From Perkinsus olseni (Eukaryota): a stretch of DNA of 20,000 nucleotides. Both the position numbers and the translations under genes were made by a program. The notes under the pieces were generated by a model. The model did not search any database and was not told the DNA's origin. It saw only the letters and a program-made list of their open reading frames with translations. Positions 13,126 through 20,000 of the stretch are shown piece by piece; within the stretch, counting starts at the first letter, position 1, and every line of letters starts with the position of its first letter. Where the stretch lies: positions 55,328 through 75,327 of the forward strand of contig JABANN010000095.1 of assembly GCA_013115125.1 (NCBI GenBank). The letters are read 5' to 3'.

Positions 13126-16100
13126 TCGGGTGATGCCTCGTCCTGTGGATGACGAACGCCTGGGTAGAACTTGGAGCTCACAGCTGTCCACAGATTTACT
13201 GAAAGTACCTTGCTCGTTCCCGCGATGGTGCACGCGCTGGTAGCAGGGCGGAAGTCATGCAAGGTTGAAATAGGTTTGGCTGAATACTCTGGTGGGAAGC
13301 GGGAAAGTTCGTACAGAGTGGACAGCTTCACCGACGGTGTTGGGCCAATAATAACGAGCGCCCGGGATTCGAAATTCTAATCGGACGAGGTTGCGACGGA
13401 AGGAATGTCCATCATTGCATCACCCACGGATTGGTCATGAAAGAGTTGAAGTTGACGGTGGAAATCCACAAAATGATTTCTTCGTGCTCATCTCGCGCGC
13501 CTTCGTAAACAAATTCTGCCGTTCTACTCGAGCGGAAATTATACGCGGCTTATGCTCATGCGTGCCCCTTAAAAGTTCTCATGTGTACCCCAAAAAATAC
13601 GAAAAGCGCGCGCCCAGGAGATCGATTAAGCGCGTGCTGCTTTGCGAAGCATAAAGAGCGTTAAGTAATTTGAGCACAGGAGGCTTCTGGAAACCTACGA
13701 GATGGTTCGCGTTGAACCCCACGCGCGAGATTGAGGACATGGGTTGAAGGCAGGTAGCGCTGGTGTACCAGCGTTTGTCCCTAGTGCGTCGAATATAGTG
13801 TCATGTAGTGTGTGTATGTCGAGCGTGTGGTGAAGAGAGCTCATATACTCATTCATCGTTTGAGTCTTCGCAACTTTCCCAACCGCGTCGTGACTGCGCA
13901 CACCGGCCAAGGCTTCCCGAGCTGCTATGATGGAGACACTGGCACTGCCAGTCTGGCTGAAAGATCGAATTTGCTGCTGCGCTATGTGATGTAGGCCCGT
14001 TAGGGAGGGCGTGGGCTCGAATGCTGGTGTGACTAGAATCGCTTTTCATTACCCTTGCGGCAAGGGCCTTGCCGAATCTCCTGCACGACGTGTTCGCTGC
14101 AACGAACTCAGTGTGGCTCGCGGCAATAATACTCAGCGAACTAATTACGCCGTCGCAGTCACTCATAAAATTTTTTTCAGGCACCTTGTTCTGAGGAGTG
14201 GTCTTTGGAAGTCCCCTGATTTGTGGTCGAAATGGCACCCCAACGCAGGGCTCAGCTGCCGCAGACCTCAGCGGTCCATTCTGAAACGTACGGCTACTTT
14301 GCTCGAGGTGGGAGGGGTTATAGTGTAAGTCGGGAGGCTCCGCGTACAGATCTCGGGCCTTGTGTGATTCTTATGTGACGCCTCGACGTTTGAATGGTGA
14401 ACACAGATCCACGACGTTTGATTCATCTTGGTTCATCTTGGGACTAGAATAATCCTTTCAGACCGAGGCGATGGCTTCTACAGTCACTGCAGCTCGTCCT
14501 TTGGGCCAAACTATTCCGAAAACCTCGAATAACACCAACATAAGCTCTTAACAGTGTTTTAAGAAGGTAAACCGCTGAGGTATTATACCTGGTCCTGCCT
14601 CGATCGCCGATCAATGATCGGGCGCCATGGTGAGGTCCACCTTATTACTATTCCGCTGTGACCCTCCGAACTTCGGAGTCCGGAGGGTGGGTACACACGG
14701 CACTGCCGTGGCGGTAGCGAGGAGAAACGATTAAAAGCTGGAGTGGTAAGTGAGCTAGGGAGTAGAGTACTGTGATTTTGAACTGGAGGTGCCTTGGTCG
14801 TTGGCCTCCCAGCTGCACGCTTGGCTCGCTCATTTGGAACATGGATGGGAATTTGATATTCGCCTGCTTCCGGCTCGGCACTCATGCAGTGGCTGGAGTC
14901 TAGGCGGAGTTCATCAAATGAACGAATGCGCCTCACTCGTGATCCTATGATGATCAGGGCTGTCTGGATGACGCGAGTTCTCTTCTTCTTGGAGCAGGAA
15001 ATGCCTCCGTGGCTGAACCGGTTCAGGCGATCTCTAGTGGATAACAACTGTGAAGTAGTAAGGTGTTTGAGTAACTTGCCTGTTTGAGTAGTAGACTACT
15101 ACTAGTACTTCAGCAGCTGGAAAAGTTCACCTTGAACTCCTCGTGATCGGCTAGCACCGCTCGCGTCCTGGTCATCAAAATGAAAAGGGGCGCTCTCGAT
15201 GGTTGAAGAATCCTTTATGCCCTTTCAGAGTCAGCGAATCTGAGGTGTTAAGGAATTCATTGTGATATCGAATGAATGATGTTGGATTGATTCTAGGATT
15301 ATGAACACATATCTTTATAGTACATCTCTCACAGAGCACGCCTATGATGCTCAGTACTGGCTTTGAAACTGAGAACTCAATCCCGAGTGGCAGCGTGTGA
15401 TAGGATTGTAGCAATTATTGCGACACGAGGCTTGTGTCGGTAGGCGTGCAGTAGGCCAAGACTTTAGTAGCTTCTTCGCTTAATTTTGACGCTTCTTCCC
15501 TTAGCCATCTGATTGTAGTCAGGGCGATCTCCTCCGCGTAGCCTCTTACGAATTGGTGGAGTAGTTTCCGTGACCTGTCATCTACAGAAATTGTTAAGTG
15601 CCACTCGCTGACCTCTCACCTTGCTCATTCCGCCATCCGTAGCATTGATATCACACGCCACTTCCTCAGATACGTGATAAGATGGACTCGCTGGGTTCAT
15701 GGGAGGTTGCGTCTGCTGCACCGTAGGATCTGGGATGTCTTCTAGCTGTTCCGCCGCCATCTCTCGGTATTGCTTGTTCAGGTCCACACTTCGCAGTGGT
15801 TCGAGTTTCAGTGCGTCGCGTGGAAACTGGGGACTTGAACCGATTCCCGAGCTGCCCTCAGCCATCCTGATTATTTCCAGCTGCCGTCGTACGTAATCTG
15901 CATCTGGAGTGAGCCCTTTGGCCTTGGTGTGTCTGCGCAGAAGAATATGGAACCGGTGAGTATAAGCGCAAAGATCTTCTCACTTCGCTCTCCCTTTATT
16001 AACTTCCCCTAGCGGTAGTAAGTCTGCCAGGCTGATATCAGGTACTGCCTCCTCCAAGAGCCCTAGGCCTAGTGCATGCTTGCAGTTGCCCTTGCGGCCA

Positions 16101-16531
16101 CAATAGCAGGAACATGTAAGTTGCCCTCCTCGTCTCTTGACGACGTGTATGCAAGATATGGCCAACTCATAGTTATCCCAGGTCCAGTCTTCCCAGGAGG
16201 CGTCGGGGTCGTCGAGCTTCTCTTTGAACCGCGCGACAAAGTCGTTGAGACGGCGTCGCCCCTTGCATATTGACACACAATGAGGAGTTGGTACGAAGTA
16301 TCTCTGTTGATCGGAGTCAATGAAGGTGTTCTTGGCAGCTGATGAAAGCGTCCACCTAGCCGCTTCCACTAGTTCTTTACGACTGGGCTTGCGGGGGAGA
16401 ATGGATGGGGTCGACGAGGGTAACGCCTCTGCCTTGGTTGAATAGGCCTCGCACGATTTTATGATATCACTGATGAGACTCGTGATCTTGGGGCCTGGAG
16501 TTATTTGACCTGAACAGGATCGTGCTCATAT

Positions 16532-16788
16532 TGCTACTGTTATCCTACCTAAGGATACTGCTACCAATGCTACTGTTATCCTACCTAAGGATACTGCTAC
16601 CAATGCTACTGTTATCCTACCTAAGGCTACTGCTACCAATGANNNNNNNNNNNNNNNNNNNNNNNNNNNNNNNNNNNNNNNNNNNNNNNNNNNNNNNNNN
16701 NNNNNNNNNNNNNNNNNNNNNNNNNNNNNNNNNNNNNNNTGCTACTGTTATCCTACCTAAGGCTACTGCTACCAATGCTACTGCTACC
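16532..16788. repeat. 36-bp minisatellite (TGCTACTGTTATCCTACCTAAGG[A/C]TACTGCTACCAA), at least 4 copies, spanning an assembly gap, inside MULE intron 16510-16787
   Basis: Units start at 16532, 16568, 16604 and 16740. N gap at 16643-16739. Confidence 0.95.
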
Positions 16789-17217: not shown

Positions 17218-17595
17218 GAATTTTGAGAGAATTTTGAGAGAATTTTGAGAGAATTTTGAGAGAATTTTGGAATTTTGAATTTTGGAATTTTGGAATTTTG
17301 AATGAATTTTGAATGAATTTTGAATTTTGAATTTTGAATTTTGAATTTTGAATTTTGAATTTTGAATTTTGAATTTTGAATTTTGAATTTTGAATTTTGA
17401 ATTTTGAATTTTGAATTTTGAATTTTGAATTTTGAATTTTGAATTTTGAATTTTGAATTTTGAATATTNNNNNNNNNNNNNNNNNNNNNNNNNNNNNNNN
17501 NNNNNNNNNNNNNNNNNNNNNNNNNNNNNNNNNNNNNNNNNNNNNNNNNNNNNNNNNNNNNNNNNTTTAAATTTTAAATTTTGAATTTTGAATTT
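17218..17595. repeat. (GAATTTT)n heptamer array with 11-bp variants (GAATTTTGAGA, GAATTTTGAAT), spanning an assembly gap, inside MULE intron 17191-17602
   Basis: Read directly. N gap at 17469-17565. Confidence 0.95.
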
Positions 17596-18269
17596 AGCTC
17601 ACCTCTTTCCATGCCTTGCTAAAGATGGATGCAGAATCTGCAATTAACACTTGTGGTGAGTGGTCAAGTCCGATGGCAGTTGCTTTCTCTTTGATGGCTC
17701 TCATAGCAGCCCGCACAGCCGTTGTATCTTCGCGGGCGGATATGCCGGCGGTGAGGAGGCGGAAATGACCGCCTTCGTCGATGCCTCCGACTAGCAGTAC
17801 CGGCACTCCCTTCCACGAGAGTTTATAAGTAAAATCACAGGTAAGTAGGGGAAGGGAGCCGTGGGACGATAGAAGTTGACGGGTACTATAGAATGATTAG
17901 AGCTTGTCATCGGTACTGTAGCATAGGCAAAATACCTCCGACGGCTTGCTGCTAGGTGGAATCACCATCATGCGCTCGCATAGCTCGGCGAGTTCAACCC
18001 TGCTGTCGTTGGGGAACATAGATGCCTCGCCTTTATAGCGGGTTCGCTGCCGCCTATTCCATACCATCCTCTCCAGGTCCTGACCCTCGACGAGCGGCTC
18101 ACCTTGCCGGAGAAGCTGGATGATAGTTATGGATGCAGCAACACCCTCTCTCACGTGCCGGTCAACGAGGTCGCGGCCCTCCTTACTCAGTCCTCGTGGT
18201 TTCCTTGCCTGTGAGGGTATCATGTGATGCTCCGGATGTGCACCTGGATCAATCTCCAACGTGAAATTG

Positions 18270-19050
18270 TCACCAGAATCGCATCATAGATTCTCTCTTC
18301 CTAGCAGGCGTTACACCAGTACCAGCCATGGAGCATAAGGCTCCCTTATAAGCACCAGCGCCGATGATACCCAGCTCGTCATAAGCCTTACCAGCTATAC
18401 TCAGCAGCGAACGTCTATTAGTCACCAAGGGGAGGCTCCTTTCCTTGCACTTGAGTCGAGTGACGCCGTCCTCGCGATATACCACATAGCCTAGCATCTT
18501 GATGGAGCTCACATTGTCCAACACCTCAAATGCCTCATCCTTAATGAGGAAGCCCTTGTTGTTGAGAGCGTCACGATCGCCTTGCATAGCAGCTCTGGTG
18601 ATCTCATCTAAGGGAGAAGAATAGCACAAATTATCAGCGTATACTCGCCTGATACAGCCTTCCTTAACAGGAGTTGAATCGAGCAGATCTCGAACACATA
18701 TTCCAAGCACGCGGCTTGAATGAACCCAGCCCATAGGCAGCCTCGTGAAACGATAAACCTTGTCACGGTAGTAGAACGCGGGATACGCGGCCCCTTCAGC
18801 AACCGTGAAGCGTATAGAATAATATGCTCGAGTGAGATCCAATTGTCCAACGCTATGATGGCCCTTGTTGCGCAGAGCGAACATGACTTCTCGAATGGAC
18901 GCAGGCTCAGAGATACTGCCACCACATTCAGCGTTGAAGTCGCGCAAGTCAACCACACCACGATCACGATGACCAGTTTCCACCACAAACAACCGCGTAG
19001 GAGCCACAGGCACGTCATCACTCCAGGGAGCTAGCTTCAGCATGATCACG
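18270..19050 (-). mobile_element. Reverse transcriptase of LTR-retrotransposon class (Bel/Pao-like features), 3' truncated
   Basis: RLFVV...RGVVDLRDFN, QLDLTRAYYSI, YRFTRLPMGW, YADN (18630-18641), IKMLGY, then TNRRSLLSIAGKAYDELG, which resembles the Bel/Pao TKRxxLSxxxxxYDPLG motif. The open frame runs 18270-19283. Confidence 0.9.
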
Positions 19051-19347
19051 GTTCCAGACAATGTCCTTCCACGTGCGGTCAGATATGGCACAGCCCTCAG
19101 CTTGAATACCAGCCAGACGTAGACTGTCGCGAGTTCTGCCCACGATCGGCAACCACTGACGAAACTGCTGCACGTTAGTGAAACCTTCGGAGTCGTTGAG
19201 GGCCTTGTCGAGAATCTTAGCGTAGTACTCGAACACGTCACTCCACTTGGAAGGGTCGGTGTCAAAGACAGATGTAGCAACATCTTCTTGAGGAGCGGGA
19301 TGGAGAATGCCGCGGATCTGATCGAGGTCTTCTTCGGTGAGGGGCAT
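19018..19347 (-). CDS. 109-aa ORF upstream of and overlapping the RT frame (small ORF1 or frameshifted RT N-terminus)
   Basis: ATG start MPLTEEDLDQIRGIL... with acidic, helical-looking composition. It ends just where RT similarity begins in another frame. Confidence 0.55.
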   Translation of the reverse strand: MPLTEEDLDQIRGILHPAPQEDVATSVFDTDPSKWSDVFEYYAKILDKALNDSEGFTNVQQFRQWLPIVGRTRDSLRLAGIQAEGCAISDRTWKDIVWNRDHAEASSLE

Positions 19348-19377
19348 GTTAACCGGTTTGAGTAGACTATAACTTTT

Positions 19378-19482
19378 GATTAATTAGCTCAGTACGGAGA
19401 GCATCGTGTCGTCCATCCGTACACCCAGGTTCGATCCCCGCTCGTGTCAGTCACTCGGGTTCAATTCCTGGTTACTCCTTTT
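19378..19482 (+). ncRNA. tRNA-like/SINE-head-like Pol III element with duplicated T-arm (not a canonical tRNA)
   Basis: A box TAGCTCAGTACGG (19385-19397) with a perfect D stem GCTC/GAGC. B boxes GGTTCGATCC (19428-19437) and GGTTCAATTCC (19458-19468). TTTT at 19479-19482. Anticodon and acceptor stems are imperfect. Confidence 0.65.
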
Positions 19483-19687
19483 CTTTGCGAGGTAGACAGT
19501 TTGTGCATGCGTGCAAGATACTTGTGCGCCATTTCCGCACAAAGCTGAAACGGTTGTCTCCCTGCACCACTCTCGAATCACTGGGGTCATGTGACTTTAC
19601 CCGAGTTCGATTCGGGAGTTGGGTTAGCGTGTCAATGGGTCTTTGCTATAGTTCTCTTTCAGTTATATTGTCGGTTATTATCCGTAC

Positions 19688-20000
19688 GGCATGTCTTCGA
19701 GACATCCATAACCTACTTAGTTGCAAGTGAGTGCTTGCGAGAACCAATCGTATCCTGTCGCCAAGGTTGAGTGGTGGAACGCAAGACGGCATGTCTTCGA
19801 GACATCGATAACCTACTTAGTTGTGAGTGAATGCTTCCGAGAACTAATAATACCCCGTCGCCAATGTTGAGTGGTGGAACGCAAGACGGCACGCCTTCGA
19901 GACATCGATAACCTACTTAGTTGCAAGTGAGTGCTTGCGAGAACCAATCGTATCCTGTCGCCAAGGTTGAGTACTGGAACGCAAGACGGCATGCCTTCGA
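19688..20000. repeat. Tandem array with an exact 100-bp period, at least 3.1 copies, running off the window
   Basis: GGCAyGyCTTCGA recurs at 19688, 19788, 19888 and 19988. The three complete units align without gaps and each ends TGGAACGCAAGAC. Confidence 0.97.

Follow-up and report, generated by a model that had tools for sequence, protein, structure and literature searches.

A probably dead, rearranged retroelement copy next to independent repeats in Perkinsus olseni

We analysed a 20-kb stretch of Perkinsus olseni DNA (in the following, the window), at whose right-hand end a reverse transcriptase (RT) domain, a short open reading frame (ORF) upstream of it, a tRNA-like stretch and a tandem array lie next to each other. 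Reading along the minus strand, an earlier note on this DNA had described a 100-bp array, a spacer of about 200 bp, the tRNA-like element, a 109-aa ORF (ORF1) starting some 30 bp further on and then the RT domain. Each of these was found at the described place, i.e., by Tandem Repeats Finder (TRF), motif counts, the list of ORFs and the Pfam family RVT_1. We mapped four related proteins (P0004-P0007) onto the whole 20 kb by tblastn and compared the window with contigs from public sequencing runs carrying the same organism label (X1, X7 and X10, the last being another sample) and from one run with a different organism label (X11); that X7 and X11 are RNA runs is a guess only, and the contigs of X1 and X10 cover the stretch in part. 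The features of the locus are as follows.

18285..19034, minus strand: RT domain remnant from fingers to thumb with open frame and YADN motif (RVT_1 and relatives)
19017..19035, minus strand: putative internal deletion junction at which the frame changes and about 0.45 kb or more is missing, namely the knuckle and the region before the RT (tblastn, contigs)
19036..19357, minus strand: ORF1 remnant (109-aa ORF from the ATG at 19347 to a stop at 19018-19020) that represents the N-terminal part of an upstream, presumably gag-like protein (BLASTP and tblastn to P0006)
17597..18284, minus strand: putative 3' truncation point at 18284/18285, followed by putative remnants of a Mutator-like (MULE) transposase (relatives, X10 record 9, Pfam)
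19361..19685, plus strand: dispersed repeat of about 327 bp that holds the tRNA-derived stretch, apparently independent of the RT copy (contig comparison)
19377..19479, plus strand: putative tRNA-derived stretch with an A-box-like site (19385-19397), two B-box-like sites (19428-19438 and 19458-19468) and a T run (19482-19485)
19599-19619: third T-arm-like hairpin, inside the 327-bp repeat
19686..20000, no strand: 100-bp satellite array of 3.2 units that runs off the window end (TRF period 100, 87% matches)

The 109-aa ORF (minus strand, 19018-19347) starts 30 nt away from the tRNA-like stretch and is overlapped by the ORF of the RT (337 aa, minus strand, 18270-19283). The latter matches RVT_1 with an E-value of 1.1e-6 and 29.0 bits, i.e., just below the Pfam cut-off of 29.6. 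Its residues 1-83 are the ORF1 sequence read out of frame, and similarity to related RTs starts from residue 84. That is, the ATG at 19283 is ruled out as a genuine start. The RT stretch is 93% identical to residues 164-413 (250 residues) of P0004, while tblastn yields identities of 44% to P0005, 46% to P0006 and 33% to P0007, each match ending at 18285. ORF1 aligns with residues 191-294 of P0006 by BLASTP (31% identity, E 1e-14), where both segments start with MPLTEEDL; by tblastn, P0006 residues 190-294 map to 19350-19036. No similarity was found between ORF1 and P0007 (E 0.04). Since the P0006 segment lies 147 residues upstream of the RT match within the same protein, the 109-aa ORF is a conserved piece of this element family that belongs upstream of the RT.

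What an intact member may look like can be seen from the relatives. In P0004 (P. olseni, partial), the part that matches the window is preceded at a distance of 140 residues by a CCHC zinc knuckle and followed by a 'YTDAS' RNase H start. P0005 (P. marinus) holds the RT plus a full RNase H and ends right after it, P0006 (P. olseni) has the ORF1-like segment upstream of its RT, and P0007, found by a profile search of 1.84 billion representatives, combines CCHC, a partial RT and RNase H. The order in fuller family members thus appears to be a gag-like protein that carries a CCHC knuckle, followed by RT and RNase H, an architecture that is read from predicted proteins and not from DNA copies. None of the four family proteins matches a protease family at E-values up to 1, and no integrase was found in any of these predicted proteins. 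Searches for longer members gave only P0006 in the range of 591-2000 aa and none at 1205 aa or more, with the range of 870-1204 aa not covered for P0005 as query.

Compared to this architecture, two parts are missing from the window copy. ORF1 similarity covers 19350-19036 and RT similarity starts at 19034-19049 (tblastn, four relatives), such that both segments abut in different frames at the point where the relatives hold about 150 residues, the knuckle among them. In P0006, the ORF1-like segment and the RT match are 147 residues apart, and P0004 has 163 residues before the RT match, with the CCHC motif at residues 6-22. At the other end, all four relatives (P0004-P0007) stop matching at 18285 and continue into an RNase H that is absent from the window. 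Neither the CCHC knuckle nor the RNase H nor other parts of the related proteins were found by tblastn elsewhere in the 20 kb.

The contigs show breakpoints at the same places. One X10 contig matches 18284-19016 at 87% identity and holds in addition 44 and 224 bases unlike the window; X10 record 9 stops at 18284. X10 record 10 matches 19032-19357 at 86% and, towards the RT, continues with 421 nt that do not resemble the window. Both the RT and the ORF1 copies of X10 run on into sequence that differs from the window, i.e., the short ORF1-RT spacing is not common to other copies. The window copy therefore appears to carry an internal deletion near 19023-19035 plus a 3' truncation. The earlier note had suggested looking for other copies that share the ORF1-RT spacing together with the tRNA-like element; the X10 copies differ in layout and, as detailed below, the flanks of the other repeat copies are unrelated. 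Its observation that neither a gag knuckle nor a long terminal repeat (LTR) precedes the RT agrees with the tblastn results and with our search for long direct repeats flanking the RT, which found none in the 20-kb window; only 650 bp of the window lie upstream of ORF1, such that a more distant LTR is possible.

A deposited hypothetical P. olseni protein, P0003, matches the locus at 100%. In this gene model, a predicted intron links residues 1-54 of the 109-aa ORF with the frame of the RT; given the deletion junction, the model is probably an annotation artefact. One X7 contig is identical to window positions 17602-19496; nothing firm on expression follows from it, since the RNA nature of X7 is a guess. 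Run X11, likewise guessed to be RNA, yielded a contig of 261 nt that is identical to 18247-18507 and spans the RT/MULE junction. It may represent parasite sequence in a host sample.

Upstream of ORF1, the tRNA-like stretch shows tRNA-gene signals. The A-box and B-box patterns used are the consensus sequences of the respective promoter elements. For the A-box pattern, the site TAGCTCAGTACGG at 19385 is the window's sole match without mismatch. B-box-like matches occur three times in the window compared to 0.41 expected from shuffles, and two of them, at 19428 and 19458, are 30 nt apart. The A-box- and B-box-like sites show tRNA-like spacing, and the region holds three copies of ACCCRGGTTCRAT (repeat family D1). 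ARAGORN reports no tRNA gene, both with default settings and with introns allowed; when the threshold is lowered to 85% and introns are allowed, it yields a poor tRNA-Arg(TCG) with mismatched stems and a 19-nt intron. No tRNA match reaches the gathering score in Rfam, and the two matches obtained for 19300-20000 at E-values up to 10 are both not tRNA. The minimum-energy fold forms no cloverleaf (z-score -1.85). That is, the stretch is not a tRNA by standard tests and has no stable structure. The tRNA-like element proposed earlier thus shows A- and B-box-like sites on the plus strand but fails the ARAGORN defaults, the Rfam tRNA model and the cloverleaf fold. It resembles decayed tRNA-gene fragments in having A-box, B-box and T-arm-like pieces that escape tRNA detection, with the difference that these pieces lie within a sharp-ended dispersed repeat and not in a short intron. 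We also considered the stretch as the primer-binding site of an LTR element; this was ruled out, as the stretch looks like a copy of a gene, there is no CCA, a T run follows and the stretch belongs to a separate repeat.

This repeat is seen in the contigs. X7 record 19 (1525 nt) matches 19361-19687 with 40 differences and 13 gaps, at a depth of 62.9 compared to 18.7 for the contig of the window itself. Its flanks of 425 nt and 760 nt are unlike the window on both sides, i.e., that repeat copy adjoins neither ORF1 nor the satellite. X1 record 1 matches 19361-19652 and holds 424 nt of unlike sequence beyond 19361, while X10 record 11 matches 19355-19529 and is followed by 431 nt of unlike sequence beyond 19355. 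Copies with unrelated flanks are thus present in all three runs that hold the repeat. These alignments show that 19361-19687 constitutes a separate repeat. It has sharp ends; no terminal inverted repeats were found around it, and the 20-kb window holds no inverted copy of it. At least three further contigs from X1 and X7 start to match at 19611-19614 with different sequence before, which suggests that the right-hand 75 bp of the 327-bp repeat form a more widespread sub-repeat.

One X10 contig (depth 16.7) differs from this pattern. It joins an ORF1 copy of 86% identity at 19357 to the opposite strand at 19683, i.e., to the far end of the repeat (56 nt). The window shows an 8-bp palindrome, AACCGGTT, at 19351-19358. 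The inverted joint may have arisen as an artefact of assembly or through another insertion at a palindromic site; alternatively, it may indicate that the repeat belongs to the termini of the element.

The 100-bp array is separated from the tRNA-like stretch by a spacer of about 206 bp (19480-19685). It attracts nearly all matching contigs, which over the whole stretch amount to 364 in X1, 69 in X7 and 31,401 in X10. The satellite contigs listed for X7 show depths of 79-760 each compared to 18.7 for the single-copy contig, i.e., they are individually several-fold to 40-fold deeper. The 100-bp unit clearly represents a satellite of very high abundance. From the array, one X7 contig passes into other sequence (loose end behind 19886). 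The adjacent 19586-19685 was considered as a diverged satellite unit and ruled out. A 28-nt satellite pattern gave no matches in metagenomes, and our literature search found neither a Perkinsus satellite nor a survey of genome repeats.

Given these observations, we consider it likely that the locus represents a rearranged Perkinsus retroelement copy that is dead, lies beside independent repeats and forms no functional unit with them, their adjacency being due to repeat accumulation. The surviving retroelement part would comprise about 1.07 kb, from 19357 to 18285 on the minus strand. Its N-terminal gag-like segment would be left as the 109-aa ORF, which an internal deletion would have joined to the RT domain in another frame. 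The RT would have been cut off right before RNase H, where the remnants of a Mutator-like DNA transposon start. Upstream, two independent repeats would follow, namely the dispersed repeat of about 327 bp, which may partly consist of decayed tRNA-gene pieces, and the very abundant 100-bp satellite. The homologies, the breakpoints, the presence of both repeats in many copies and their other flanks are direct observations, the order of events and the inactivity of the copy are what we infer, and ORF1 is presumed gag-like from its position only. The earlier note had put forward a heavily deleted retrotransposon in satellite DNA as its second option, which is backed by the deletion, the truncation and the abundant satellite.

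Some points weigh against this reading. The RT frame is open across 250 codons, hence the copy is not heavily mutated, and the X10 joint of the ORF1 flank (19357) to the inverted repeat end (19683) hints at a non-random link at the 5' end. Furthermore, no full-length copy was seen, such that the intact architecture is assembled from predicted and possibly mis-spliced proteins, and the summed depth of contigs does not equal copy number.

With regard to the junction, the copy might have lost nothing at the DNA level if it was reverse-transcribed from spliced element RNA, with the knuckle region removed as an intron. A junction that is precise to about 10 nt would fit, but the reading frame changes there, and the 3' truncation and the lack of termini show DNA-level damage anyway. 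We regard this as an unlikely explanation.

Another explanation concerns the 327-bp repeat, which might be the retroelement's own terminal repeat, e.g., an inverted repeat of DIRS type with an internal complementary copy, such that the tRNA module would be part of the element. DIRS elements are defined by a Dam-like methyltransferase, inverted repeats and an internal complementary region. To place the family, 69 of the 141 proteins matched by our RT profile were scanned with Pfam. RT-linked RNase H families typical of Ty3-like pols are carried by 45/69, a Dam-type methyltransferase by three (P0053, P0072 and P0117), and DUF7047 together with an integrase by two. We take the combination of Dam-type methyltransferase and RT in P0053, P0072 and P0117 to be a DIRS-like architecture. 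A tyrosine recombinase (Phage_integrase) was found in none of the 69 scanned relatives at the thresholds used.

A quick maximum-likelihood tree was computed from 67 RT cores, using rows that cover at least 150 of 216 profile positions; P0003 (identical to the window) was left out, as were P0007 and 71 other proteins due to short coverage. The four Perkinsus rows form one clade (support 98) with a long stem. This clade falls into a side of 25 rows (support 81), a polytomy that also holds the Dam-bearing clade (95) and the DUF7047 pair and is separate from a Ty3/retrovirus-like side of 42 rows, where the reference labels are based on Pfam architecture only. In the Atlas structure search, the P. 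marinus RT-RNase H protein (P0005) is nearest to an arthropod cluster with DUF7047, RVT_3 and rve (template modelling score, TM, 0.80).

The family shares features with two known groups. As in DIRS1-like elements, a gag-like ORF precedes RT and RNase H, no protease was detected, the RT lies on the tree side that holds the clade bearing the Dam methyltransferase (within a polytomy), and one inverted-repeat joint, that of the X10 contig, is found beside ORF1. In contrast to DIRS1-like elements, the searches revealed neither a tyrosine recombinase nor a methyltransferase domain for this family, and paired inverted terminal repeats were not seen either; its motif is YADN, compared to YVDD, YLDD and YIDD among the aligned rows. 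With Ty3/Gypsy and BEL/Pao elements it shares the CCHC knuckle in gag and an RT-linked RNase H after the RT (weak RT_RNaseH matches), and its nearest Atlas structure cluster carries rve. It differs from them in that no protease, integrase, LTR or primer-binding site was found at the locus or in the family members, and in that the tree does not place its RT on the Ty3/retrovirus side. The earlier note had named ordinary gag-protease-RT-RNase H-integrase LTR elements elsewhere, together with a genome-wide satellite, as what would speak against its reading; the other copies indeed appear as gag(CCHC)-RT-RNase H and the satellite is abundant, while protease and integrase are absent from all family members found.

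For a terminal repeat, it is relevant that the ends of the 327-bp repeat (19355-19361) coincide with the end of the ORF1-flank similarity (19357) and that the X10 ORF1 copy is joined at this very position to the inverted repeat end at 19683 (56 nt). The missing protease and the position of the family on the weakly supported tree side (81) with the Dam-bearing DIRS-like clade, away from Ty3 elements and retroviruses, point in the same direction, and P. marinus is listed among the taxa with DIRS1-like elements in a table of the respective study (PMC3266345). On the other hand, the inner flanks of the other repeat copies are unlike ORF1, with the X7 paralogue differing on both sides, the window holds no inverted copy, and the joint stems from a single contig of depth 16.7. 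Furthermore, the scanned relatives lack Phage_integrase at the thresholds used, P0005 ends after RNase H without a methyltransferase domain, and the tree position is a polytomy. We thus hold it quite improbable that the repeat belongs to the element. The extended form of this idea, i.e., a protease-less gag(CCHC)-RT-RNase H lineage of Perkinsus with YADN motif near the DIRS-like elements with the 327-bp tRNA-derived repeat as its inverted terminal repeat, is a long shot. If true, it would constitute a new variant of tyrosine-recombinase-type retroelements whose ends bear a tRNA-derived module resembling those of RNA polymerase III (Pol III) genes.

Beyond the truncation point, two putative segments of the Mutator-like neighbour were found.

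17597..17896, minus strand: MULE transposase remnant (MULE domain, E 4e-5, 24.4 bits vs. cut-off 27.6)
15983..16525, minus strand: probable C-terminal part of the same MULE transposase with a weak SWIM zinc finger (SWIM E 0.011, below cut-off)

Both parts are separated by microsatellites and N runs (16643-16739 and 17470-17566), beside which a (GAATTTT)n microsatellite and a 36-bp tandem repeat are located. No MULE terminal inverted repeats were found in the window. RT similarity stops at the exact base at which the MULE remnant begins, and the 327-bp repeat, which has sharp ends, is present in multiple copies. This could be expected if the ORF1-RT fragment had been captured by the transposon (Pack-MULE style), with the 327-bp repeat as its terminal inverted repeat. 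However, the 20 kb show no inverted copy of the repeat anywhere downstream of the transposase remnants, and nothing tested ties the repeat to MULEs, which renders such a capture very improbable.

The favoured idea of the earlier note, a stand-alone RT module that obtains its primer or template RNA from the tRNA-like element or the 100-bp array, could draw on the compact layout, the open RT frame and a possible Pol III transcript from the A-/B-box-like motifs and the T run, but it has hardly any probability left, as the RT is apparently a piece, truncated at both ends, of a family whose members carry CCHC, RT and RNase H, the layout is not common to other copies, the tRNA-like repeat and the satellite also occur independently (with repeat flanks unlike ORF1 and RT), the tRNA-like stretch is no tRNA and has no stable structure, and the ORF1-RT junction is out of frame.

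We therefore return to the reading as a dead, rearranged copy beside independent repeats. The locus itself is then of little weight, i.e., a decayed transposon copy in repeat-rich DNA, and it is the RT family that deserves attention. At E-values up to 1e-3, the profile search gave 141 matches, of which only six reach 1e-10, namely P0003-P0006, which are Perkinsus-named by their source, P0007, a family member without a source name, and P0008. P0008 is a tandem-repeat artefact with at least five tandem copies of one RT segment. Matches of family members to RT_RNaseH are weak. Going by these searches, the family appears isolated and deep-branching, all of its members with a source name being Perkinsus proteins. 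In metagenomes, 67 pattern matches were obtained with the RT profile, none of which was confirmed; a sequence search of solved structures (PDB) with P0005 returned nothing meaningful (best E 0.2), and no paper on this Perkinsus RT family turned up in our literature search.

The catalytic YxDD motif (near 18640) is replaced by YADN in the window as well as in all three relatives with a full RT (P0004, P0005 and P0006), while P0007 shows HANN. When P0005 is aligned with 103 profile matches, the second catalytic Asp position holds D in 93 of the 104 rows and N in seven including P0005; the motif reads YVDD in 25/104 rows, YLDD in 24/104 and YIDD in 15/104. An Asn that is kept at this position across copies of only 44% identity is unusual for an RT that has apparently multiplied. 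As the family is poorly connected to other RTs, both its class and its YADN motif merit a genome-wide census. A clear class, i.e., a tyrosine recombinase or an integrase, would enrich the sparse picture of perkinsozoan mobile elements.

Among the wider profile matches, P0013, like P0008, shows an odd architecture that is unrelated to the locus: its RT and RNase H are joined to thymidylate kinase, thymidine kinase and dUTPase domains.

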